From an uncultured bacterium (GTDB lineage Bacteria; Chloroflexota; Limnocylindria; QHBO01): a stretch of 64,000 nt of DNA. The notes under the pieces were generated by a model. That model worked only from the letters and a program-made list of their open reading frames with translations. It was not told the origin of the DNA and searched no databases. The stretch covers positions 5,402-69,401 of the forward strand of contig CBFGTN010000003.1 of the NCBI GenBank assembly GCA_965652075.1, written 5' to 3'. Every line of letters begins with the position of its first letter. The first letter of the stretch is position 1. Below are positions 978-19,756 of this stretch, piece by piece. Both the position numbers and the translations under genes were made by a program.

Positions 978-3578
978 ATGCCGCTGGAGGAGTATCGGCG
1001 CAAGCGCGACTTCGGTCGGACGCCCGAGCCGGCGCCGGGGGATGTCGTGGCGCGGAGCGGTCGCTTCACGGTCCAGCGGCATCGCGCGACCGCCCTCCAC
1101 TACGACACGCGCCTCGAGATCGACGGGGTTCTCGTCAGCTGGGCGGTGCCGAAGGGCCCGTCGCTCGACCCGAAGGTCCGGCGGCTCGCCATGCGGACGG
1201 AGGATCACCCGATCGAGTACCTCGACTTCGAGGGCGTCATCCCGGCCAAGGAGTACGGGGCCGGCGACGTCATCGTCTGGGACTGGGGCACATGGGAGCC
1301 CGAGCCGGGTGAGCCGCCACCCGCGGCGGCGCTCCGCCGGGGAGAGATCAAGTTCATCTTCCATGGCCAGCGTCTGCACGGTCGGTACACGATCGTCCGG
1401 ACCGATCGCGACGACGGCCGTGAGCGATGGCTGCTGCTGAAGAAGAAGGACGAGGCCGCGGTCGACGGCTGGGACGCGGAGGACCACCCGACGAGCGTGA
1501 AGACCGGGCGCACGAACGACGAGGTGCAGGCCGGTGAGCCGCCGCGCTTCATGACCGATGCGCCCCGGCAACCCGGCGACGTCGACCTCTCGGCCGCCCG
1601 TGTCTCGCAGATGCCCGACTTCATCCCGCCGATGAACGCCACCCTCGCGAGTGGCCCGTTCAGCGATCCGGACTGGCTGTTCGAGGTCAAGTGGGACGGC
1701 TATCGCGTGGAGGCCGTGGTGCGCAACGGCCGCACCCGGCTCTGGACCCGCCGCCGCCAGGACGCGGCCGCCTACTTCCCGGACCTGGCCGACGCGACGG
1801 GCTGGATCGACGCCGAAGAGGCGATCGTGGACGGCGAGGTCGTGGCCCTCGACGAGCGCGGGCGGCCGCAGTTCAGCCTGCTCCAGGACCACACCGGCAT
1901 CCGGACCTGGCGCGCGCCGGGCGGCAAACGTCGTGGGACGCCCGCGGACGTCGTGTACCAGGCGTTCGACCTGCTCCACGTGGACGGCCAATCGCTGCTC
2001 GACGTGCCGCTCGAGGAGCGCAAGCGGCTCCTGCACGCGCGCCTGCGCCCGCACGCGCTCGTCCGCTTCGCCGGCCACGTCGAGGGCGACGGCGAGGCGT
2101 TCTTCGAGGCGGCACGCGCGCAGGAGCTGGAGGGCATCGTCGCCAAGCTGCGACGCTCGCCATACGAGGTCGGGCGCCGGAGCAAGTCCTGGCTGAAGCT
2201 CAAGGTCCGACGTGAGCAGGAGGTCGTGGTCGTCGGCTGGCTGCCGGGGCAGGGGACGCACGCCGATCTCGGGTCACTCATCCTCGGCGTCCGATCCGGC
2301 GACCGGTGGCTCCACGCCGGCCAGGTCGGGAGTGGGCTCGACGCGCGAACGCGTCGCGAGCTCCTCGCGCGCCTCCACGACCTGGAGCGGCCGACGTCGA
2401 TCCTCGACCCGGCGCCGCGACTGCGCGGCTCCCGCTGGGTGGAGCCCGAGATCGTCATCCGCGTCGAGTTCGCGGAGTGGACGGCGGACGACCTGCTGCG
2501 ACAGGCCGCATTCAAGGGATTCGAGCCCGACCGCGATCCGCGGACGGTTCGCCGCGAGCGCGAGGTCTCGGCAGCGCGCGCCGCGGCCGAGGCCGAGCGT
2601 GCGCACGCCCCCGAAGCGACGCCGCCAACCACCGGAAGCGTGGCCGACGCGATCGCCGCGCTCAACGCGTTGGAGAAGGAGGGCACGTGGGTCGTCGAGG
2701 GCCGCGAGATCCGGGTCACGAACCTCGAGAAGGTGCTGTTCAGCGCCCGCGAGGGCGAGCCGCCGGTGACGAAGCGCGACCTGCTCCGCTACCACGTGGA
2801 GGTCGCCTCGACGCTCGTGCCGTACCTGGACGATCACGGGCTCACCGTCCAGCGCTTCCCGAACGGGATCGAGCAGAAGGGGTTCTGGCAGAAGGACCTC
2901 CCGGGGCACGCCCCGGCCTGGATCAAGCGCTGGACGTTCCACCACCGCGAGGAGGGGCCGAAGGAGTACGCGGTCGTCGACTCCGCGGCGACGCTCGCGT
3001 GGCTGGCGCAGGAGGCGGCCGTCGAGCTCCACCCGTGGACGAGCCCGCTCGAGGCACCCGATCGGCCCTCGTATGCGCTCATCGACATCGATCCGGGACC
3101 GGATACGACGTGGGACGAGCTCCTGGTCATCGCGCGCCTGTACCGGACCGCGCTGGAGCACCTCGGCGTCGTCGGCCATCCGAAGGTGACCGGCAAGCGC
3201 GGGATCCAGGTCTGGATCGGCATCGCGAGCGGGCCGACGTTCGAGGACACGCGGAACTGGGTCGAGGGGCTCTCGCGCGCGGTCGGCTCGATGGTCCCGG
3301 ACCTCGTCAGCTGGGAGTGGGCGAAGCGCGCGCGCCGAGGAAAGGCGCGGCTGGACTACACCCAGAACGTCATCAACAAGACGCTGGTCGCCCCGTACAG
3401 CGCGCGGCCCGCGCCGGGCGCGCCGGTGAGCATGCCGATCACCTGGGACGAGCTCGAGGATCCACACCTCCGTCCGGACCGATGGACGATTCGCTCGGCG
3501 ATCGATCGGATCCGCGAGGTTGGCGATCCGTTCGCCGGCGCGCTGACCGACGACCAGGAGCTGCCGCCGCTCGGCTGA
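978..3578 (+). CDS. ligD: Multidomain ATP-dependent DNA ligase LigD (NHEJ), domain order phosphoesterase-ligase-polymerase
   Basis: N-terminal PE domain: RFTVQRHRATALHYDTRLE...WAVPKGPS...HPIEYLDFEG. Ligase motif I: FEVKWDGYR. C-terminal primase-polymerase-type domain: VTNLEKVLF...QRFPNGI...KRWTF. The start is taken at MPLEEYRRKRDF, 6 nt after the HAD stop. Confidence 0.9.
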   Translation: MPLEEYRRKRDFGRTPEPAPGDVVARSGRFTVQRHRATALHYDTRLEIDGVLVSWAVPKGPSLDPKVRRLAMRTEDHPIEYLDFEGVIPAKEYGAGDVIVWDWGTWEPEPGEPPPAAALRRGEIKFIFHGQRLHGRYTIVRTDRDDGRERWLLLKKKDEAAVDGWDAEDHPTSVKTGRTNDEVQAGEPPRFMTDAPRQPGDVDLSAARVSQMPDFIPPMNATLASGPFSDPDWLFEVKWDGYRVEAVVRNGRTRLWTRRRQDAAAYFPDLADATGWIDAEEAIVDGEVVALDERGRPQFSLLQDHTGIRTWRAPGGKRRGTPADVVYQAFDLLHVDGQSLLDVPLEERKRLLHARLRPHALVRFAGHVEGDGEAFFEAARAQELEGIVAKLRRSPYEVGRRSKSWLKLKVRREQEVVVVGWLPGQGTHADLGSLILGVRSGDRWLHAGQVGSGLDARTRRELLARLHDLERPTSILDPAPRLRGSRWVEPEIVIRVEFAEWTADDLLRQAAFKGFEPDRDPRTVRREREVSAARAAAEAERAHAPEATPPTTGSVADAIAALNALEKEGTWVVEGREIRVTNLEKVLFSAREGEPPVTKRDLLRYHVEVASTLVPYLDDHGLTVQRFPNGIEQKGFWQKDLPGHAPAWIKRWTFHHREEGPKEYAVVDSAATLAWLAQEAAVELHPWTSPLEAPDRPSYALIDIDPGPDTTWDELLVIARLYRTALEHLGVVGHPKVTGKRGIQVWIGIASGPTFEDTRNWVEGLSRAVGSMVPDLVSWEWAKRARRGKARLDYTQNVINKTLVAPYSARPAPGAPVSMPITWDELEDPHLRPDRWTIRSAIDRIREVGDPFAGALTDDQELPPLG

Positions 3579-3597
3579 CCGGGCTACCATGGGGCCG

Positions 3598-4182
3598 ATG
3601 ATCGAACAGCTGCTCACCGTCACCCCCGCGGCCCGCGAGAAGATCGATGGCGTCCGCGACTTCAACGAGTTCCCCGAGGCGGTGCTGCGCGTCCGCATCC
3701 TCGCCCGCGAGGGACCCCGCTTCCGCTACGAGATCGCGCTCGAGGACCCGCGCGATCGGACCGAGGACGACCTCGTCGTCGACGTCGAGGGCCTGACCGT
3801 CGCGGTCGATCCCGTCACGGCGGTCGATCTGGCCGGCTCGACGGTCGACCTTGACGCCGGCATCACCGGCGGCGGCCTGCGCATCGACAATCCGAACGAG
3901 GGCTGGAAGGACCCGGTCGAGCGGGCCGTCCAGGACGTCCTCGACCGCCAGATCAACCCGGGCGTGGGCTCCCACGGCGGGATGGTGTCACTCGTCGAGG
4001 TGCGCGACGGCGCCGCCTACCTGCGATTCGGCGGGGGCTGCCAGGGATGCGCGGCCGTCGACGTCACCCTCAAGCACGGGGTCGAGACGGCCATTCGCGC
4101 CGCGGTGCCGGAGGTCACGGCCATCGTCGACGCCACCGACCATGCGGCGGGGACGAACCCGTACTACGCGCACCAGCACTGA
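3598..4182 (+). CDS. NfuA-like Fe-S cluster carrier (cysteine-less A-type N-domain plus Nfu C-domain)
   Basis: The C-terminal Nfu motif is INPGVGSHGGMVSLVEV...GGGCQGCAAVDVTLKHGVE, with CxxC. The N-terminal HesB/IscA-like half has no Cys. An alternative start lies at 3589. A TACCAT box 7 nt upstream of 3598 suggests a leaderless start. Confidence 0.8.
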   Translation: MIEQLLTVTPAAREKIDGVRDFNEFPEAVLRVRILAREGPRFRYEIALEDPRDRTEDDLVVDVEGLTVAVDPVTAVDLAGSTVDLDAGITGGGLRIDNPNEGWKDPVERAVQDVLDRQINPGVGSHGGMVSLVEVRDGAAYLRFGGGCQGCAAVDVTLKHGVETAIRAAVPEVTAIVDATDHAAGTNPYYAHQH

Positions 4183-4197
4183 GTCGTCGGACACACG

Positions 4198-4223
4198 AAA
4201 CGGGGCCCTCGCGGGCCCCGTTT
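4198..4223. terminator. GC-rich hairpin between the convergent nfuA-like gene and the small ORF; probable bidirectional terminator
   Basis: The sequence is aaaCGGGGCCC-tcgc-GGGCCCCGttt. It has a perfect 8-bp GC stem and a 4-nt loop, flanked by A3 and T3, so it reads as stem plus short U-tract on both strands. Confidence 0.6.
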
Positions 4224-4241
4224 GGCTGCGTTGGATCCCGC

Positions 4242-4370
4242 TCAGCGGAATCGCGCGGGGAAGTCGCCACCGCCGGTCGCGGCCATCACGGTCGTGGCAA
4301 TGCTGAGCAGTGTCAGCGCCGCGGTCGTGCCGGCCACCACGAGCGTGCGGACGAATCGGCTGGTGCGCAT
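4242..4370 (-). CDS. Unannotated small ORF of 42 aa, candidate secreted pro-peptide: MRTSRFVRTLVVAGTTAALTLLSIATTVMAATGGGDFPARFR
   Basis: ATG at 4370..4368, TGA at 4244..4242. A GGGAG Shine-Dalgarno sits 9 nt upstream. By eye about 36 of 42 third positions are G/C, as in the surrounding genes. The N-terminus is basic (MRTSRFVR), followed by a hydrophobic core and a TVMA-AT site resembling an AXA signal-peptidase site, which would leave a 12-aa tail. It ends at the 4198..4223 hairpin. It is below the 60-aa cutoff of the ORF track. Confidence 0.5.
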   Translation of the reverse strand: MRTSRFVRTLVVAGTTAALTLLSIATTVMAATGGGDFPARFR

Positions 4371-4536
4371 CGGTCTTGACTCCCTGGTGTCGCGCTCGGT
4401 CGGGCTTCGCCGAATCGCGTGGAGTCACCGTCGCCCCGATGGGACCAGCCGACAATGCCCCATCGGTCCCGCCTGACAATCGGCGGCGCAGTACTTTTGG
4501 TGGTGCGTTCGGTCAAGTGATGCTTGCCAACGCGTG

Positions 4537-4542
4537 TAAACT
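4537..4542 (+). promoter_or_regulatory. Candidate -10 box (TAAACT) for a leaderless transcript of the XRE-TPR regulator
   Basis: A TANNNT hexamer ends 6 nt before the ATG at 4549. There is no SD. A TG dinucleotide lies immediately upstream. The -35 is poor. Confidence 0.3.
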
Positions 4543-4548
4543 GCGCCC

Positions 4549-5850
4549 ATGCCCCGCACGAAGACCGGCGCGCGAGCGTCGACCGAGCAGGATCGGGCGC
4601 TCGCGCAGCACATCGGTCAGCGGATCCGCGAGGCGCGTCATCGCGCCGGATTGACCCAGCAGCAGCTCGCCGGAGACCGGTACACCAAGGCCTACGTCAG
4701 CGCGCTGGAGACGGGGATCGCGCGCCCGTCGATGGTCGCGCTGCGCTACCTGTCCGAACGCCTCGGGCTCCCCGCCAGCCACTTCATCGACGAGGGCCAT
4801 CCGGCATGGACGAGGCTCGAGGTCGACATGCGGCTCGCCTCCGGTGACTGGGAGGCTGCCGCGGACGGCTACCGGACCCTCCTTGCCGACGCCACCGACG
4901 ACGGGACGCGCGTGGATCTCCTCCGTGGCCTCGCGGAGGCCTCCGCTCGGATGGATCGCGGCAAGGACGCCGTCACGGCCGCATCCGAGGCCGCCCGCAT
5001 CTACGCTGAGGCCGGGCGCGAGGCCGATGCGGCCCTCGCTCGCTACTGGCTCGCGTACGGGCTCTACCAGTCGGACAACGAGGTCGATGCTCGCAGCATC
5101 CTGGCCGCGCTGCTCGAGCAGGTACGCGGCGGGCTGCGCGTCGAGCCCGATTTCGAGATGCGCCTCCTCACCTCCCTGGCCGCCGTCGAGTCACGTGCCG
5201 GCCAGGCGTCGCGGGCGCTGTCTTACCTGGAGGAGGCTCGCGGCTTGTCGGCCGATCTCGACGACCGACGGCGAGCGGCGTTCCTCTTCAACCTCGCGAT
5301 CAACTACCGCGAGGTCGGAGACTACGAGGGCGCCATCCGCGCCGGAACCCAGGGCATGGCCCTGTACCGCGCCGCGGGCGCGATCTTCGAGTCCGCCCGC
5401 ATCGAGAACGACCTCGCCCTCGCCTTCCTGGCGACGGGTCAGGTCGAGCGCGCGCGCGAACTCGCCGCCGACGCGCGACGCCAGATCGAGGAGACGGGCG
5501 ACGAGCGCTGGATGGCTGCCGTCGTCGACACGGAGGCCCAGGTCGCCCTCGCCGACGGCGATGTCGATCGAGCGCTCGAGCTCGCGGTGAGCGCGCGCTC
5601 CTACGCGGACCGCACCGGCAACGAGTTCAATGGGCTCATGGCCATGCTCACCGAGGCGCGCGCTCTCCGCCGCGCCGACCGGGGGGAGGAGGCGGAGGAA
5701 CGATTCGCCGAGGCCGCCCGAATCGCGCGCGCGAGTCGCGCGCCGAACCGCCTGCGCGAGGTGCTGCGTGAGTGGGCGGACCTGCGCGCCGCGGCCGGCG
5801 ACCATCGCGGCGCGTATGAGCTCACGAGCGAGGCGCTCACGGTCAATTGA
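4549..5850 (+). CDS. XRE-family HTH transcriptional regulator with a long C-terminal TPR superhelix (433 aa)
   Basis: The N-terminal Cro/C1-type HTH is LAQHIGQRIREARHRAGLTQQQLAGDRYTKAYVSALETGIARPSMVALRYLSERLGL. The rest consists of repeated TPR-like helical hairpins, for example AFLFNLAINYREVGDYEGAIRAGTQGMALYR. Confidence 0.85.
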   Translation: MPRTKTGARASTEQDRALAQHIGQRIREARHRAGLTQQQLAGDRYTKAYVSALETGIARPSMVALRYLSERLGLPASHFIDEGHPAWTRLEVDMRLASGDWEAAADGYRTLLADATDDGTRVDLLRGLAEASARMDRGKDAVTAASEAARIYAEAGREADAALARYWLAYGLYQSDNEVDARSILAALLEQVRGGLRVEPDFEMRLLTSLAAVESRAGQASRALSYLEEARGLSADLDDRRRAAFLFNLAINYREVGDYEGAIRAGTQGMALYRAAGAIFESARIENDLALAFLATGQVERARELAADARRQIEETGDERWMAAVVDTEAQVALADGDVDRALELAVSARSYADRTGNEFNGLMAMLTEARALRRADRGEEAEERFAEAARIARASRAPNRLREVLREWADLRAAAGDHRGAYELTSEALTVN

Positions 5851-5853
5851 GTG

Positions 5854-5883
5854 TTGACAGGTGCGGTCCACGGACCGTAGTCT
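5854..5883 (+). promoter_or_regulatory. Candidate sigma-70-type promoter TTGACA-18 nt-TAGTCT, embedded in the palindrome GTTGACAG-N21-CTGTCAAC
   Basis: A consensus -35 lies at 5854..5859 and a TANNNT -10 at 5878..5883. The perfect 8-bp inverted repeat 5853..5860 / 5882..5889 brackets it, with an inner GGTCC-ac-GGACC palindrome. Confidence 0.35.
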
Positions 5884-5889
5884 GTCAAC

Positions 5890-5962
5890 CGACGAGTCGG
5901 ATGGGCACGCCGACTTGCCTGCCGGGATCGGAGTTGGGGCACGACTCCGATCCCTTTTCGTT
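5890..5962 (+). ncRNA. Candidate small RNA of about 70 nt with two hairpins; alternatively the structured 3' UTR of the XRE-TPR gene
   Basis: The predicted TSS is about 7 nt after the TAGTCT box. Hairpin 1 is 5893..5917 (AGTCGG-AUGGGCACG-CCGACU). Hairpin 2 is 5924..5954 followed by a U-tract. Both 9-nt loops share GGGCACG. No credible ORF is present. Confidence 0.3.
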
Positions 5963-5965
5963 GTT
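5924..5965 (+). terminator. Canonical intrinsic terminator
   Basis: GGGATCGGAGT-tggggcacg-ACTCCGATCCC is a perfect 11-bp stem followed by TTTTCGTTGTT. The T-tract is present only on the plus strand. Confidence 0.8.
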
Positions 5966-5970
5966 CGGCG

Positions 5971-6555
5971 TCAGGGCTGGGGGCTCGACGCCGTCTCGAC
6001 GAGGACGAACCTGCCCTCCGCGATCGCCACGCCAGCGGGATCGAGGTAGATCCGCATGACGTACGCGCCCGCGCCCCACGCGTCCAGCAGGTTCGCCGCC
6101 GGCACCGTGAAGCCGATGAGCGCGGGCGCGCCGGGGATCGCCTGTGCCTCGATCGGTGCCTGCACGACCTCGAGCGGCCCGCCGTCCGTCCGTTCGACCT
6201 CGACGTAGGCGGCGTCGGCAGGTTCCCCGCCGTCGACGGCGTACGCGAACGTCGATCCGCGATCGAAGGTCGTCGTGCGTGAGGCGACCGGCACCACCCG
6301 CTCGGCGGTGAGCTCGGTGCCGAAGACGATCGCCAGCCGGGCGGTGCCGCTGGTGCTCGACGGGCTCGGCAGGACGGCCCCTCCATCCGCACTCTCCCCG
6401 AACAGCCGCACGGCCCCGGCGATACCGAGCACGATGATCAGGGCCGCCAGCCAGCCGGCGAGCTGCCTGGCGCGCGGCGAGAGGCGGAAGCGTCCTCCGT
6501 CCCCCGGCCGCCGTGCCATCGACCGCGGGCGCCTCGGCAGGAAACGCTCTCGCAT
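5971..6555 (-). CDS. Hypothetical single-pass membrane-anchored protein with an extracytoplasmic beta-rich domain
   Basis: The N-terminus is Arg-rich, followed by one TM helix (LAGWLAALIIVLGIAGAV) and then about 140 aa with no motif I recognise. The frame is GC3-rich. An alternative start lies at MARRPG (6519). Confidence 0.6.
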   Translation of the reverse strand: MRERFLPRRPRSMARRPGDGGRFRLSPRARQLAGWLAALIIVLGIAGAVRLFGESADGGAVLPSPSSTSGTARLAIVFGTELTAERVVPVASRTTTFDRGSTFAYAVDGGEPADAAYVEVERTDGGPLEVVQAPIEAQAIPGAPALIGFTVPAANLLDAWGAGAYVMRIYLDPAGVAIAEGRFVLVETASSPQP

Positions 6556-14490: not shown

Positions 14491-14982
14491 ATGACGCGCA
14501 TCACGCGACTGCCGGGCACCGGCCGCGACCGGTCACGGTCGCTGGCCGAGGTCGAGACCCTCGCCTGGCTGCTCGAGAACAGCATCCCGGTGCCGGGCAC
14601 GCGCTGGAGGTTCGGGTTCGACGGCATCATCGGCGTCATTCCCGGCATCGGCGATCTCGTCGGCGCGGGGCTGACCCTGTTCGTCGTCTGGCGCGCATCC
14701 CGGATGGGCCTCCCGCGCATCGTCGTGGCGCGGATGCTCATGAACGCGGCGATCGACCTGGTCGTCGGCGCCATTCCGTTCGCCGGTGACGCCTTCGACC
14801 TTTGGTTCAAGGCGAACACGCGCAATCTCGGGCTCATGCGTCGATGGCTCGAGCACCCCGAGGGCTCGACCCGCAACGAGTGGTTCGCGCTGATGCTGAT
14901 CATCGGCCTGCTCGTCGGGATGGTGGCCTTCGTGATCTGGCTGATCGCCGCGATCATCTCCGCGCTGTTCGGCGGGCTGTGA
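14491..14982 (+). CDS. DUF4112 membrane protein
   Basis: FGFDGIIGVIPGIGDLVGAGLTLFVV...NAAIDLVVGAIPFAGDAFDLWFKAN is the typical DUF4112 core. The ATG is at 14491, inside a longer artefactual track ORF. Confidence 0.75.
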   Translation: MTRITRLPGTGRDRSRSLAEVETLAWLLENSIPVPGTRWRFGFDGIIGVIPGIGDLVGAGLTLFVVWRASRMGLPRIVVARMLMNAAIDLVVGAIPFAGDAFDLWFKANTRNLGLMRRWLEHPEGSTRNEWFALMLIIGLLVGMVAFVIWLIAAIISALFGGL

Positions 14983-15958
14983 CCGTGGCCTCGAGCGCGC
15001 CGTGGCGCTCGAGCATCCGCCGCGCGAGCGTGATCGCGCGCTCCCGGACCTCGGGCGGATCGAGAATCTCCGCTCGGCTCCCGAGGCCGATCAGGCGGCC
15101 CGGCACCTCCTCGGGCCAGTCGGCCGTCACGCGAAGGTGGAGCCAGCCGTCCGGGTCCTCGACCTTGAGCCGCTCCGCGGATCGGACCGCCTGCATGCCC
15201 ACGGCGTCGGCGAGGGCACCGAGCACCGCCGGGTCGATGCGGACGGTGACGGTGATCCGGGGCGCGCCCTGCTCGTACGTCGCCGTCGACTCGGACCAGT
15301 AGGCCGGCAGGTCGAAGTCGGCCGGGCGCTCGAACGCCGCGTCGGCCACCGTCACCTCGGTGATCCGCGAGACCCGATACGTTCGGATCTGGTCCTCGGA
15401 GCGCGCCACGAGGTACCAGACCCCGGCCTTCAGCACGAGACCCAGCGGCTCGAGCTGGCGCTCGACGATCTCGTCGCCACGCCGATAGCGAACCCGCGCG
15501 CGGCGCGCCTCCCACACCGCGTCGGCGAGGGTCGCGAGGTTCGGCACCGGGTCGCTCGACGCGAACCACGCCGTCGCGTCGAGGTGGAAGCGCTCGACGA
15601 GCCGCGAGGCACGGGCGCGCAGCTCGCCCGGAAGGGAGGCGAGGACCTTCAGGCGAGCCGCAGCGACGACGGTGCCGAGGCCGAGCTCGGCGGCGGGGCC
15701 GGGCATGCCGGACAGGAAGAGCGCCTCGGCCTCGTCAGCGGTCAGGCCGGTGAGCCGCGTACGGTAGCCGTCCACGAGCTGGATCCCGCCGTGGGGGCCG
15801 CGCTCGGCGTAGATCGGCACCCCGGCTGCGCTCAGCGCGTCGACGTCACGATGGATCGTGCGCTCGCTGACCTCCAGCTCCTCTGCCAGGACGGCGGCCG
15901 TCGTCCGGCCGCGCGCCTGGAGGAGCAGGAGCAGCTGGACGAGCCGGGACGCGCGCAT
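14954..15958 (-). CDS. WYL-domain transcriptional regulator (wHTH + WYL + C-terminal extension)
   Basis: The N-terminal wHTH is RLVQLLLLLQARGRTTAAVLAEELEVSERTIHRDVDALSAAGVPIY. The WYL core is RVRYRRGDEIVERQLEPLGLVLKAGVWYLVA. The ATG at 15958 lies within a longer track ORF. Confidence 0.85.
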   Translation of the reverse strand: MRASRLVQLLLLLQARGRTTAAVLAEELEVSERTIHRDVDALSAAGVPIYAERGPHGGIQLVDGYRTRLTGLTADEAEALFLSGMPGPAAELGLGTVVAAARLKVLASLPGELRARASRLVERFHLDATAWFASSDPVPNLATLADAVWEARRARVRYRRGDEIVERQLEPLGLVLKAGVWYLVARSEDQIRTYRVSRITEVTVADAAFERPADFDLPAYWSESTATYEQGAPRITVTVRIDPAVLGALADAVGMQAVRSAERLKVEDPDGWLHLRVTADWPEEVPGRLIGLGSRAEILDPPEVRERAITLARRMLERHGALEATVTARRTARR

Positions 15959-15996
15959 CGGAGCGGAGAATACGCGCGAATTGGCGACAGGATCGG

Positions 15997-18148: not shown

Positions 18149-18191
18149 GGTCCGAAGACGCAGGCCCGCGGCGATTGTTGCAGTCGGGGAC

Positions 18192-19238
18192 CTAGCGTCC
18201 GTCCGCCACGGCCCGCATGACCTTCGCCGCCTCGTGGCACTGGTCTGCGGAGATCTCCAGGTGCGTGACGGCGCGTACGGTCCGAGGGCCGAACGGGTTG
18301 AGCCACACCCCCCGGCGTCGGCACGCCTCCACGAATGTGGCCGCGTCCGGCACGCCCCGGCGCTCCACGAGCCGGAAGACGATGATGTTCGTCTGGACCG
18401 TCGCCAGGTCGAGCTCGACGTCGTCGCCGCGAAGCAGCTCCTCGGCCAGGAGGCGGGCGTTGGCGTGGTCCTCTGCGAGCCGGTCGACGTTGTTGGCGAG
18501 CGCGTACGAGCCTGCGGCGGCGAGGATGCCCGCCTGGCGCATCGCGCCCCCGGCCATCCGCCTGAAGCGATGCGCGCGGTCGATCACCTCGCGCGACCCC
18601 GCGAGCATCGAGCCGGCGGGCGCGCCGAGTCCCTTGCTGAGCGACAGGGACACGAGGTCGAACCCCGCCGCCAGCGAGGAGGCCGGGGTCGCGGTCGCGA
18701 CCGCCGCGTTCAGGATGCGGGCGCCGTCGAGGTATGTCGCCAGGCCCGCCTCCCGAGCGACCGCCATCGCGGCCGCGAGGTCGTCTGCCGGGAAGACGAT
18801 GCCGCCGGCACGGTTGTGCGTGTTCTCGGCGACGAGCAGGGACGTCGGCGGATAGACGATGTGGCCGCGCGGCTTGATCGCGGCGCGGACCGCATCGGCG
18901 TCGTAGGTGCCCGCCGACCCGACCGGGCTGAACTGGACGCCAGCGTTGGCGGCCCCGGCCCCGGTCTCGTGCAGGACGACATGCGAGTCCGTCGGGACGA
19001 GGACGTCGTCGCCTGGGCGGGTGAGCGTGCGGAGCGCGACCTGGTTCGCCATCGTCCCGCTCGGCAGGAACAGCGCGGCCTCCATCCCGAACAGCGCCGC
19101 GACGTCGTCCTGCAGCCTGTTGACCGACGGGTCCTCTCCGTACTGGTCGTCGCCGACCTCGGCTTCGGCGATCGCCCGGCGCATGGCGGCGCTCGGGCGT
19201 GTGACGGTGTCGGAGCGCAGGTCGATGCGGTCGGCCAT
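18192..19238 (-). CDS. ltaE: Low-specificity L-threonine aldolase (PLP)
   Basis: [16 protein letters not shown]...[12 protein letters not shown]...[10 protein letters not shown]...SLSKGLGAP (PLP lysine). The ATG at 19238 lies within a longer track ORF. Confidence 0.88.
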
Positions 19239-19261
19239 CGCCCCGATGATAGGCGGCTCGG

Positions 19262-19675
19262 TCAGGCGATCGGAAGCGTCGGGTCGGAGCGGCGCGTCCG
19301 CGGCTTGTGCAGCAGCGACGCGACCTCGTCGAGGTCGGGCGCCGTCGTGCCGCGCAGCCACTCGATGGCGGCCTCGAGGTCCTCGACGCAGAATGGCTTG
19401 CCCATGACCGCGACGTTCGGGCCGGCCACGATCTTCATCGGCAGCGAGGCGAGGAGCATCCCGGTGCAGATGAGGACCCGTGGCAGGTCGAGGACGACCC
19501 GGCGCCGTCGAGCCGGTAGCTCCATGAGCTGGGTGCCGTCGATGATCAACGCGTCCGGTCGCTGGCCGAGCGCGATGCGCGAGTCGAGCTCGGTGGGGGT
19601 CAGCATCTCCGCTTCCGGCAGCAGCTCGCTGAAGAGCTCGCGCACCCCCGGTTCGCGGTCGCTGACCCAGACCAT
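19262..19675 (-). CDS. Stand-alone response-regulator receiver-like protein
   Basis: A CheY-like pattern is visible: N-terminal acidic VWVSDRE, the candidate phospho-acceptor in ALIIDGTQL, and the conserved Lys in [17 protein letters not shown]. The start is uncertain, with an alternative at 19753. Confidence 0.45.
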
Positions 19676-19756
19676 TCCGGCCACGCCGCCGATGCAGCAA
19701 GACCGATGCCGCGCGCGGCGTACGATGCGGCACGCAACCCGCGACGTATCCATGGC

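Follow-up and report, generated by a model that had tools for sequence, protein, structure and literature searches.

The window that we analysed, a 64-kb stretch of Chloroflexota DNA with 71% GC, contains a small ORF of 42 codons and the gene for a 433-aa regulator as a divergent pair, followed beyond the regulator gene by a candidate small RNA (Table 1). The original prediction had described the small ORF on the minus strand and the 178 bp that separate its start from that of the regulator gene; the translation reads exactly as it was written there, and the coordinates confirm the gap. Three further elements were absent from it: a 12-codon leaderless version of the small ORF in related genomes, the small RNA and a pair of GTCAA-N7-TTGMC palindromes. 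The nearby genes of the window are of the housekeeping kind (LigD, NfuA, DUF3090, a phosphatase, a helicase, MsrB, Paa proteins and ThrRS) and no relatives were found on viral contigs, and a prophage or mobile element was rejected on these grounds.

Table 1. Features of the cassette, in positions of the window.
Feature	Position	Strand	Basis
Regulator, 433 aa	4549..5850	+	Pfam, AlphaFold2, Foldseek
XRE-type HTH, residues 13-79	4585-4785	+	Pfam HTH_31, HTH_3
Eighteen helices forming nine TPR hairpins, residues 85-431	4801-5841	+	AlphaFold2, Pfam TPR_12
Small ORF, 42 codons, MRTSRFVRTLVVAGTTAALTLLSIATTVMA followed by ATGGGDFPARFR	4242..4370	-	translation, GC3, homologues in 75/75 loci
Signal-peptide-like part, codons 1-30	4281-4370	-	three Arg, uncharged core, V-M-A
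Conserved tail, codons 31-42	4245-4280	-	follows predicted cleavage site
Shine-Dalgarno GGGAG (plus-strand CTCCC), 9 nt before small-ORF ATG	4380..4384	-	sequence
Perfect 9-bp GC hairpin between convergent nfuA and small ORF	4200..4221		sequence; TTTCGTGTGT follows on minus strand
Conserved motif CAATGMCCCATCGGTCC, includes right-hand repeat arm	4453..4469		three alignment groups; unique in window
Conserved block GTACTTTYGG, -10 region of presumed small-ORF promoter, not canonical	4491..4500		alignment
Palindrome site 1, GTCAAGTGATGCTTGCC (GTCAA-N7-TTGCC), candidate operator	4512..4528		three groups and distant locus L071
-10-like TAAACT (family consensus GTGTAnACT) of putative regulator promoter	4537..4542	+	three alignment groups and L071
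Palindrome site 2, GTCAATTGAGTGTTGAC, candidate operator	5842..5858		overlaps regulator stop codon and small-RNA -35
Small-RNA promoter, TTGACA (5854-5859), 18 nt, TAGTCT (5878-5883)	5854..5883	+	conserved in 65 loci
Candidate small RNA, about 69 nt	5890..5958	+	terminator, alignment, structure counts, covariance model
P1, loop AUGGGCACG	5893-5900 pairing 5910-5917	+	hand-derived structure
Terminator hairpin, loop UUGGGGCACGA, then U-run	5924-5954	+	terminator scan

For comparison we used 75 related loci, all that could be examined, from Ca. Limnocylindria with one genome per species. Named relatives of the regulator come from metagenome assemblies of Ca. Limnocylindria or other Chloroflexota, except for a few bins labelled as other phyla. 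The genes flanking the related loci vary by clade (nfuA, ligD or neither) and the pair is not accompanied by any transporter, kinase or modifying enzyme in these neighbourhoods, nor was a peptide importer found among the roughly half of the window's coding-like ORFs that were scanned against Pfam. The small ORF occupies the same divergent position beside the regulator gene in 75 of 75 loci, and its spacing from the regulator gene is fixed (approximately 170-190 nt) in clades with at least 65% identity. Peptide gene, HTH/TPR regulator and candidate small RNA form a cassette that has stayed together throughout a whole class of uncultured Chloroflexota from soil, in which the three parts and the two palindromes are conserved and always co-occur.

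ORFs of 42 codons are not unusual at 71% GC, and the same DNA holds many spurious ones. It is because of its conservation that we accept the small ORF as a genuine gene. Its coding-like GC3, noted previously, is borne out (0.86, against 0.88 for the regulator gene and 0.93 for nfuA), and the GGGAG Shine-Dalgarno sequence and the perfect GC hairpin after the ORF were both found where they had been reported, the hairpin lying between the stop codon and nfuA. This hairpin is likely a two-way terminator, which the pattern scan did not call because its T-run is short. In public assemblies, 125 blocks have a gene call for the identical 42-aa product, with no annotation beyond 'hypothetical protein'. 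Among the 75 loci, frame and stop codon are intact throughout, the start codon is ATG in 74 and GTG in one, and a GGAG-type motif precedes it in almost all, two being degenerate (GAGGAT and GAGGGA). A leader peptide or attenuator was rejected, as the next gene is convergent wherever it could be identified and a strong hairpin lies 3' of the ORF in most loci.

On the test that the original prediction had set, a short ORF is conserved beside the regulator orthologues, in a signal-like long form at 46 loci and in a 12-codon form at the other 29. The long form (37-43 aa) has a basic N-terminus, a hydrophobic core and a small-x-small site, with two to four N-terminal basic residues and the small-x-small site before the tail in 46 of 46 cases, and its most conserved part is the C-terminal tail, xTGGG[D/N][F/W]Px. 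Nucleotide differences among long forms fall mostly on third codon positions (1549/1228/2374 by codon position), and the charge of the n-region and the small-x-small site are kept where the sequence of the hydrophobic core differs, including in a clade at approximately 50% identity. In the window an uncharged segment of about 22 residues (21-32 when the Gly-rich region is included) precedes V-M-A. From these features the peptide would probably be exported, with predicted cleavage after the small-x-small site. A Tat signal was rejected on our own reading of the sequences, as the window peptide has no twin arginine and those relatives that bear RR lack the following hydrophobic pair.

The 12-codon form, MRSAHTGGGWPS, is confined to one clade and carries no export signal; it keeps only the N-terminal MR(S/T), which is common to both forms, and the tail, with ribosome-binding site, start and stop intact. 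To judge from the sequences it clearly derives by internal deletion from a signal-peptide-bearing ancestor. Its product is polar and Gly-rich, and the nucleotides of its core, GGCGGCGGCTGGCCC, are almost invariant. Since it shows no third-position excess (963/1238/1142 by codon position), its coding status rests on the kept ribosome-binding site, start, stop and frame. That the tail is retained without the export segment suggests that it is the part that functions and that it acts in the cytoplasm, which is also where the TPR protein resides, if the regulator is located there as we assume. Lacking an export signal, the 12-aa form also implies that this clade, at least, may not communicate between cells.

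These observations bear on two other explanations of the small ORF. It is scarcely credible that the ORF is untranslated and that a DNA or RNA element has been conserved in its place: the missing third-position excess of the 12-codon version, the near invariance of its core nucleotides and the conserved motifs and hairpins upstream of the ORF would fit such an element, yet the long form has a clear third-position excess, the GGAG-type site is well spaced in almost all 75 loci with start, frame and stop preserved as described above, and n-region charge, small-x-small site and tail persist where the nucleotides diverge, down to approximately 50% regulator identity. It is improbable, to a lesser degree, that the long form remains uncleaved as a micro-protein that crosses the membrane once, N-terminus inside; such a protein would use its short basic N-terminus to tether the regulator at the membrane or titrate it there, or would modulate a membrane protein, and would provide no diffusible signal. 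The uncharged segment could span a membrane as a helix, the positive-inside rule agrees with the basic N-terminus and MR(S/T) is conserved in both forms; however, the small-x-small site is kept where the hydrophobic segment ends, also in the approximately 50% identity clade with its different core, the conserved tail would sit outside the cell beyond the regulator's reach, and the short form lacks a membrane segment altogether.

The regulator matches Pfam HTH_31 (3.6e-9), HTH_3 and TPR_12, and its AlphaFold2 model (mean pLDDT 88.7, pTM 0.70) shows an HTH followed by nine TPR hairpins, in agreement with the N-terminal HTH and C-terminal TPR run read previously from the sequence. More than 1400 homologues were found, and in the related loci the HTH is nearly invariant, as are the palindrome half-sites. 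The proposed structural resemblance to RRNPP receptors holds for the domain plan, which is that of NprR and AimR, and does not extend to an RRNPP-specific ranking of the fold. A profile searched against PDB sequences found the HTH of PlcR as the closest solved HTH (1.2e-10), then RapH (1.2e-6), RapJ (2e-3) and NprR (0.02), with kinesin light chain outscoring Rap and NprR. In Foldseek it is peptide-binding TPR superhelices that match best. Generic eukaryotic LGN/Pins TPR domains take the top ranks and PlcR and Rap appear at ranks 34-46 (PlcR 5e-7; RapI TM-score 0.56/0.65; PlcR, RapF, RapI and Rap-pLS20 all at E <=2e-6). Because generic TPR proteins outrank the RRNPP receptors, the fold does not single out RRNPP or establish common descent. 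No RRNPP-specific Pfam or NCBIfam model matched, and an AimR-like fold was sought by structure search among viral models and not found.

NCBIfam also gave a faint match of the regulator to a cyclophane-peptide TPR protein (E 0.078, 11 bits against a cut-off of 1125). Together with the aromatic residue and following Pro in the C-terminal core of the peptide, this match could be taken to mean that the product of the small ORF is a precursor from which a ribosomally synthesised, post-translationally modified peptide is made, for example with an aromatic cross-link, and that the TPR protein is a biosynthetic or regulatory partner. We regard this as very improbable, as no gene for a radical-SAM enzyme, cyclase, protease or transporter is conserved beside the pair, the neighbours differ between clades, and a Sec-type leader is unusual for such precursors. 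The distance between peptide tails tracks that between TPR domains when HTH distance is controlled for (partial r 0.48; 0.25 for the reverse), a relationship that phylogeny confounds.

Conservation within the intergenic region was judged in three alignment groups at no less than 65% identity. Of the elements described there earlier, the 8-bp inverted repeat (4436..4443/4459..4466) is present, and it is not significant, as 11% of dinucleotide-preserving shuffles of the 178 bp contain one; only the arm at 4459-4466 lies within a motif conserved in all three groups. The GACAAT direct repeats likewise exist without significance, a 6-bp repeat occurring in 77% of shuffles, and the second copy is not conserved. 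In the proposed minus-strand promoter the TTGACC box (4511-4516) is conserved, while for the TACTGC assigned to the -10 only 'TAC' is. A consensus promoter scan found no sigma-70-type promoter in the intergenic region. If transcription of the small ORF starts near 4481, the motif at 4453..4469 would lie in the 5' leader of its mRNA. RNAalifold found no structure in this leader, and we do not claim the inverted repeat as a structure because compensatory changes are clear in one lineage only (L011).

Palindromes of the form GTCAA-N7-TTG(A/C)C number only two in the window, where 0.02 occurrences are expected in 64 kb, and both lie on promoters of the cassette. Across 659 kb of related loci the pattern has 131 matches, almost all of them at these two sites. 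The minus-strand half of site 1, TTGACC (4516-4511), is the -35-like box of the small ORF, and the same site spans -37 to -21 of the putative regulator promoter; its pattern also precedes the regulator gene of the distant locus L071. The -10-like TAAACT of the regulator promoter ends 7 nt before the ATG, which implies a leaderless regulator mRNA. Site 2 is retained in 65 of 65 small-RNA loci, including those in which it falls outside the coding sequence.

Site 2 leads into the candidate small RNA, which follows the regulator gene in 65 of 65 loci of the clades with at least 65% identity. This element, previously unnoticed, measures about 70-105 nt across the loci, is structured and has its own predicted promoter, kept as TTGACA-N18-TAnnCT in the 65 loci; the consensus scan did not list the window copy. 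In clades at 65-72% identity the RNA takes a 100-113-nt version with an extra hairpin. The hairpin loops of the RNA carry a repeated GGGCAC motif. Because RNAalifold on a MAFFT alignment gave a poor consensus, we tested a hand-derived structure, in which 89% of cells are paired and 11 pairs are changed on both sides. The observed number of changed pairs was reached by 3 of 500 shuffles and the other four measures by none of 500, and slid controls were clearly lower. A covariance model found a single copy in each locus, on the plus strand, with no second one in the window, and detected no copy in the approximately 50% identity clade. A known RNA overlapping the region was rejected by comparison with Rfam 15, which gave no match at gathering score in the window and nothing above chance-level hits in 4150-6000. 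Pairing of the small-RNA loops with the regulator start codon or the leader motif was also rejected, since it extends over 6-9 nt only and is not conserved. The terminator hairpin of the small RNA would also form the 3' end of any regulator transcript.

Taken together, the cassette appears to be built like an RRNPP or arbitrium peptide-signalling system, and we consider the chances about evenly balanced that it works by peptide sensing; the original reading as an RRNPP-like peptide switch is to that extent partly supported. By analogy with those systems we infer cleavage, export, re-import, peptide-TPR binding, regulator-palindrome binding and the direction of regulation. The small gene would give rise to a pre-peptide of approximately 40 aa, which would be exported by the Sec route and cleaved behind the small-x-small site (in the window, V-M-A), releasing a linear peptide of about 8-12 aa with the conserved core TGGG[D/N][F/W]P. 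This peptide may build up outside the cell, re-enter and bind the concave face of the nine-repeat TPR domain. A regulator dimer would occupy both palindromes, of which site 1 would supply the -35 of the peptide promoter and, since it also overlaps the regulator's own leaderless promoter, suggests autorepression. Site 2, of the same geometry, would place the small RNA under the same control as an output comparable to aimX, and peptide binding would switch DNA binding or activation, such that expression of peptide and small RNA follows peptide concentration. In the one large clade that has lost the export segment, MRSAHTGGGWPS may act inside the producing cell or exit by another route, like the streptococcal leaderless peptides.

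The same arrangement could arise if both the small gene and the small RNA are under the control of the regulator while the peptide is not its ligand and the TPR domain senses another protein or a metabolite; the peptide would then have an extracellular or membrane role, for example as an antimicrobial, as a signal read by a receptor in the membrane or as a small subunit of a complex there. We hold this to be unlikely, though it carries real weight: divergent placement and common palindromes indicate co-regulation only, the TPR fold matches are generic, and the regulator's weak NCBIfam similarity to NsdA, AfsR and MalT-type TPR regulators, with TPR_MalT (PF17874) present in some homologues, hints at ligands of other kinds. 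Loss of the export segment should, however, inactivate an extracellular job, yet 29 species keep the exact 12-codon frame and its ribosome-binding site; moreover, regulator and small ORF stay together in 75 of 75 loci across differing genomic neighbourhoods, and the pair is accompanied by none of the transporters, kinases or modifying enzymes mentioned above.

Quorum sensing by peptides that act on intracellular TPR receptors is regarded as characteristic of Firmicutes and their phages. RRNPP(A) receptors consist of a TPR-type superhelix of 5-9 repeats, preceded in all but Rap by an N-terminal XRE-type HTH, and their pro-peptides of approximately 35-50 aa are exported and re-imported by oligopeptide permease. 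Ca. Limnocylindria are common in soils and their behaviour is almost unexplored. The regulator described here has the HTH plus nine-TPR domain plan of NprR and AimR (PMC12700828, PMC9232636). Also like RRNPP(A) systems, it adjoins the gene of a predicted pro-peptide of approximately 40 aa with a secretion-signal-like N-terminus and a conserved C-terminal part (46 loci), has palindromic candidate operators on the cassette's own promoters and finds its closest solved HTH in PlcR; unlike them, it belongs to a Chloroflexota host, matches no RRNPP-specific sequence model and has generic TPR proteins ahead in the fold search. RRNPP search tools have been applied to Firmicutes (PMC10075063), and our literature search found no RRNPP-like system described outside Firmicutes and their phages and no report of quorum sensing in Limnocylindria. 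The cassette might therefore be the first RRNPP-type cytoplasmic-receptor system outside Firmicutes, ancestral to an entire class of Chloroflexota that is abundant in soil and freshwater and uncultured, with a small-RNA output and a signal 'privatised' by loss of its export segment, a reading that we put forward tentatively and with somewhat less confidence than peptide sensing itself.

A conserved look-alike in Chloroflexota would mean that the design is either much older and more widely spread than thought or has arisen twice. An outgroup for rooting the RRNPPA family is missing and its ancestral receptor may have had nine or five repeats (PMC12700828); should the regulator prove a genuine distant homologue, it could fill that place as a structural outgroup. 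The cassette also offers a short testable handle, comprising an 8-12-residue peptide, a soluble regulator, two 17-bp DNA sites and one small RNA, and its signal-bearing and leaderless versions in sister clades would, if the reading is true, be a natural experiment in which a public signal becomes private.

Both the 'privatised' 12-aa peptide and a structured small RNA as built-in output would have no described counterpart, although each has partial parallels. The streptococcal SIP/LCP leaderless peptides that act with RopB are encoded by very short ORFs as peptides of mature length, with no secretion or processing sequence (PMC10518010). The 12-codon ORF likewise encodes a mature-length peptide directly, beside an HTH-TPR-type regulator; it differs from them in its polar and Gly-rich product, SIP/LCP being hydrophobic, and in its evident origin from a longer, signal-bearing form. 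In arbitrium, aimR-aimP-aimX comprise receptor, peptide gene and short output transcript, with an inverted-repeat operator before the output (PMC9232636). Our cassette shares this three-part layout, with a short putative output transcript beside the pair and an inverted repeat in front of it. Unlike arbitrium, it is chromosomal, in a housekeeping neighbourhood and with no viral relatives; its peptide gene is divergent and upstream of the receptor gene rather than downstream; its operator candidate is GTCAA-N7-TTGAC rather than 6-bp repeats 25 bp apart; and its putative output is a structured RNA whose 3' end is also that of the regulator. Small RNAs of the DapZ/MicL type are derived from 3' ends and are transcribed from a promoter of their own, located where the upstream gene ends. 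The candidate RNA resembles these in that its promoter overlaps the 3' end of the preceding coding sequence and one terminator is common to both, and differs from them in belonging to no Rfam family and in the repeated GGGCAC of its loops.

The 42-codon small ORF starts 178 bp from the start of the divergent gene for the 433-aa HTH-TPR regulator, in a window with a GC content of 71%, and its GC3 (0.86) is similar to that of the adjoining genes; the coordinates in the original prediction of an RRNPP-like peptide-signalling cassette were all correct (see Table). Since ORFs of this length are frequent by chance in such high-GC DNA, the case for the small ORF has to be made from related loci. In 125 public-assembly blocks a gene with exactly this 42-aa product has been called, with no annotation beyond 'hypothetical protein', and in all of these it lies between an nfuA-like gene and the regulator; the relatives of the window that bear names are Candidatus Limnocylindria (Chloroflexota) genomes from soil-metagenome assemblies. 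A scan of one genome per species yielded 80 loci with regulators 50-94% identical to that of the window, and among the 75 with sufficient upstream DNA we found a small ORF on the opposite strand in every case (75/75), bearing out the expectation that a short ORF is conserved beside orthologues of the regulator. It is preceded by a GGAG-type ribosome-binding site in almost all of these loci (degenerate in two). Its start and that of the regulator are 170-190 nt apart in the clades at >=65% identity. The flanking gene varies between clades (nfuA in the closest, ligD directly in those at 65-72%, neither at ~50% identity) yet the small ORF and the regulator stay, so that, judged by gene order, the two are conserved as one unit. 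A leader peptide for the downstream gene was ruled out, because the gene 3' of the small ORF is convergent in every locus where the neighbour was identified and a strong hairpin follows the small ORF in most loci.

Three minor features of these loci were also recorded. The stop codon of the small ORF (4242-4244 in the window) is TAG in 52/75 loci, including 27/29 of the short forms described below, versus 17/52 window genes, a difference whose nominal p-value overstates the effect because the loci are related. Part of the ~50%-identity clade (L066-L068, L070, L071 and L073-L075) carries an extra 105-aa XRE-type HTH gene between peptide gene and regulator (L071:3950-4267), and the regulator promoter (palindrome plus GTGTACACT) then lies within the 3' end of this gene. 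The metagenome-assembled genome JBBEBK01 holds two cassettes (L041 and L057) with the 12-aa peptides MRYGHTGGGWPS and MRSAHTGGGWPS, which could be paralogous systems or reflect a mixed bin.

Table. Features of the cassette in the window, with tail peptides and the related element of other loci
Feature	Position	Strand	Sequence or basis
Perfect 9-bp GC hairpin	4200-4221		between small ORF and convergent nfuA-like gene
Small ORF	4242..4370	minus	product MRTSRFVRTLVVAGTTAALTLLSIATTVMAATGGGDFPARFR (translation)
GGGAG ribosome-binding site	9 nt upstream of small-ORF ATG	minus	sequence
Tail peptides			long form: ATGGGDFPARFR, TGGGDFPR; short form: MRSAHTGGGWPS
Block (iv)	4453-4469		CAATGMCCCATCGGTCC
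Block (iii)	4491-4500		GTACTTTYGG
Block (i), site 1	4512-4528		GTCAAgTGAtGCTTGCC, imperfect palindrome GTCAA-N7-TTGCC
Block (ii)	TAAACT 4537-4542		GTGTAnACT; TAAACT ends 7 nt before regulator ATG
Site 2	5842-5858		GTCAATTGAGTGTTGAC, spans regulator stop codon
Small-RNA promoter	-35 5854-5859, -10 5878-5883	plus	sequence
Candidate small RNA	~5890 to 5958	plus	alignment and terminator
Small-RNA hairpin	5893-5900 pairs with 5910-5917		loop AUGGGCACG
Small-RNA terminator hairpin	5924-5954		loop UUGGGGCACGA
Related downstream element	L028:7697-7735, L033:3300-3338, L034:7225-7263, L037:7253-7291, L051:7235-7273, L060:7860-7898

The peptide occurs in two forms. The long form (46 loci, 37-43 aa) opens with 2-4 basic residues and an uncharged stretch, carries a small-x-small motif (V-M-A, V-L-G, A-L-A or V-F-A) about 30 residues in, and ends in a tail that reads xTGGGDFPR... 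in the clade of the window, VTTGGGFPH, CSNGNGFP or TGGDWPR in other clades and GSGGPPFPR or DGGGTIFPK in the most distant one. Long-form differences in a 41-codon set are distributed 1549/1228/2374 over the three codon positions, a third-position excess that reads as a coding signature; that the conserved stretch is a non-translated element is scarcely credible. Free divergence of the hydrophobic core goes with retention of the charge pattern, of the small-x-small site and of the Gly-rich-aromatic-Pro tail, as would be expected of a cleaved secretion signal joined to a functional short peptide. The hydrophobic stretch (~22 residues) could instead be a membrane anchor, and a membrane micro-protein, which this stretch would permit, is an improbable alternative; a precursor of a modified peptide we regard as very improbable. 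Three long forms (L025, L044 and L022) have a Cys directly after the small-x-small site (TVAAC/SNGNGFP, TVMAC/TGGGTFPH), an arrangement that resembles a lipoprotein lipobox and could lead to lipid attachment instead of release.

The short form (29 loci) has exactly 12 codons, MRSAHTGGGWPS or variants such as MRSASTGGGWPF and MRQVTNGSGFPQ, and starts at the same position as the long form, with a ribosome-binding site and without the hydrophobic segment. Its regulators fall into one cluster, adjoining long-form loci with tails ending WPS or WPR, which makes a single origin of the short form, by in-frame deletion of ~27 codons, the most likely. It shows no third-position excess: the variable positions alter amino acids, and G-G-G-[W/F]-P is fixed. 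That 29 species-level genomes retain the short form speaks for the tail as the portion that matters for function and suggests that the tail is able to act in the cytoplasm. In the short-form clade the system may thus be a private feedback loop rather than cell-to-cell communication; alternatively, the short peptide may exit by some other route, by analogy with streptococcal leaderless peptides (PMC10518010).

The HTH and TPR architecture foreseen for the regulator is borne out by Pfam matches (HTH_31, HTH_3 and TPR_12) and by an AlphaFold2 model (alignment of 132 homologues, 49-94% identity; mean pLDDT 88.7, pTM 0.70), in which a five-helix HTH (residues 13-79) precedes nine TPR hairpins made up of 18 helices, the plan described for NprR- and AimR-type receptors (PMC12700828, PMC9232636). 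By sequence profile, the solved structure nearest to the HTH is PlcR (1.2e-10), and the TPR part matches kinesin light chain (2e-7), RapH (1.2e-6), RapJ (2e-3) and NprR (0.02). Of the known receptors with which a structural comparison had been proposed, PlcR (5e-7) and the Rap proteins RapF, Rap of pLS20 and RapI (TM-score 0.56/0.65) were recovered by the fold search, but at ranks 34-46, below the peptide-binding TPR domains of LGN/Pins as best matches (E ~1e-9, TM-score 0.57/0.66-0.74), and predicted viral structures yielded generic TPR proteins only and no AimR. No RRNPP-specific Pfam or NCBIfam model matched the regulator. The predicted fold joins a PlcR-like HTH to a TPR superhelix of the peptide-binding type, and it decides RRNPP homology neither way. 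Residues R205, Y226, D238/D239, R241 and N287 are invariant.

Alignments of the three clades at >=65% identity revealed four conserved intergenic blocks, of which (i) and (ii) also precede the regulator gene in the distant locus L071, where the 105-aa XRE gene is inserted between peptide gene and regulator. Because TAAACT lies so close to the regulator ATG, a leaderless regulator mRNA is suggested. The palindrome GTCAA-N7-TTGMC occurs twice in the 64 kb (sites 1 and 2) versus 0.02 times expected, and a scan of one strand of 659 kb of related loci, not a complete census, gave 131 matches, most of them sites 1 and 2 of the module. Since the palindrome half-sites are nearly invariant, as is the HTH across the regulator family, we take the palindromes as the probable operators of the regulator. 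Within the regulator's own promoter, site 1 occupies -37 to -21, a placement that has repression geometry. At each palindrome the outer half supplies a -35 box, which reads TTGACC on the minus strand ahead of the small ORF and TTGACA ahead of the small RNA, and the palindrome centre lies ~38-39 nt upstream of the expected start at both promoters, so that peptide gene and small RNA would be co-regulated. The small-ORF promoter of the original prediction thus survives in its TTGACC, the -35-like half of site 1, but lacks a canonical -10; neither the 8-bp inverted repeat proposed there (11% of shuffles) nor the GACAAT direct repeat (77% of shuffles) is significant alone, and only one arm of the inverted repeat lies within a conserved motif.

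In 65 loci of the closer clades, TTGACA-N18-TAnnCT directly follows the regulator and precedes a conserved predicted transcript with an intrinsic terminator, which in the 65-72% clades is 100-113 nt long and has one more hairpin. For 32 distinct sequences of this long version, a three-helix structure leaves 89% of cells paired, with double-sided changes at 11 pairs, a number reached by 3/500 shuffles; no shuffle attained the observed value on any of four further measures. Covariation scores 0.226, versus <=0.111 for slid partners. A covariance model detected the RNA exactly once per locus, on the plus strand, in all closer clades and found it neither in the ~50%-identity clade nor elsewhere in the window, and no Rfam family matches. 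GGGCAC is present in its hairpin loops. There is no terminator between regulator and small RNA, which therefore also forms the 3' end of regulator transcripts. Its position and putative operator make the small RNA the obvious candidate output of the cassette.

An RRNPP/arbitrium-like peptide switch is the best-supported reading of the cassette, and we give it about an even chance of being right; it is favoured by the invariable association of peptide gene with regulator, the tail-focused conservation and the peptide-binding-type fold. The pre-peptide would be exported and cleaved, and the 8-12-aa tail peptide taken up again to bind the TPR groove of the regulator, which would change regulator action at the two palindromes and alter expression of peptide, regulator and small RNA; transcription starts would be expected at ~4481 (minus), 4549 (leaderless regulator) and ~5890 (an abundant RNA of ~70 nt). 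Further evidence for the switch comes from the leaderless clade, which speaks for a tail acting in the compartment of the regulator, and from a modest co-variation of the tail with the TPR domain rather than the HTH, a signal confounded by phylogeny. The main rival, in which the peptide gene is only a target of a regulator with some other ligand, seems to us rather unlikely.

In the papers found, RRNPP(A) systems are described from Firmicutes and their mobile elements only (PMC10075063, PMC9765709, PMC10518010), and an outgroup of the RRNPPA family is still to be found (PMC12700828). In line with the original prediction, we found no literature report of such systems in other phyla; we also found none of quorum sensing in Limnocylindria. 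The cassette is like RRNPP/arbitrium systems in logic and domain plan, but its Chloroflexota host lies outside the taxonomic range of the family and its regulator matches no family model. We therefore do not file the cassette as a member of RRNPP(A). Its built-in structured small RNA and the natural change from a signal-bearing to a leaderless peptide have no described counterpart.

Several further observations concern promoters and neighbours. The promoters read here have the common -10 form TAnnCT or TAnACT (window 4537-4551 and 5878-5883; several loci), and at least two genes seem leaderless, with a -10 ending ~7 nt before the ATG: the regulator and, in loci of the L024-L034 type, the gene after the small RNA. 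A related element (GTCAAATGTCTTGACGTCAAG...TAGACT) is found in six loci, ~2 kb downstream of the cassette. It joins a GTCAA-N5-TTGAC palindrome to a promoter-like TTGACG-N17-TAGACT and may be a different type of promoter or a further target. In L071, which is without the small RNA, a divergent PAS-histidine-kinase gene (2418-3584, minus) has a site-2-type palindrome (GTCAATTGGTAATTGAC, 3650-3666) 66 nt upstream, and cassette output may hence vary between clades. GAUGGG(G)CA recurs in both small-RNA loops (5901-5909, 5934-5944) and in what is presumed to be the 5' leader of the small-ORF mRNA (minus-strand RNA, window 4436-4469), and plus-strand DNA at 4455-4465 is complementary to 7-9 nt of these loops; this match, a short one that other clades conserve only in part, could be a shared protein-binding motif or chance. 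Two window stretches of ~1.5 kb each (14491-15996 and 18149-19705) hold no coding-like ORF >=100 aa by a crude GC3-based gene call. Finally, the gene that converges on the small-RNA terminator (5971-6555, minus) encodes a 194-aa protein that has an N-terminal membrane segment and lacks a Pfam match; it is conserved at this position in the closest clade as well as in part of the short-form clade (36-76% identity).
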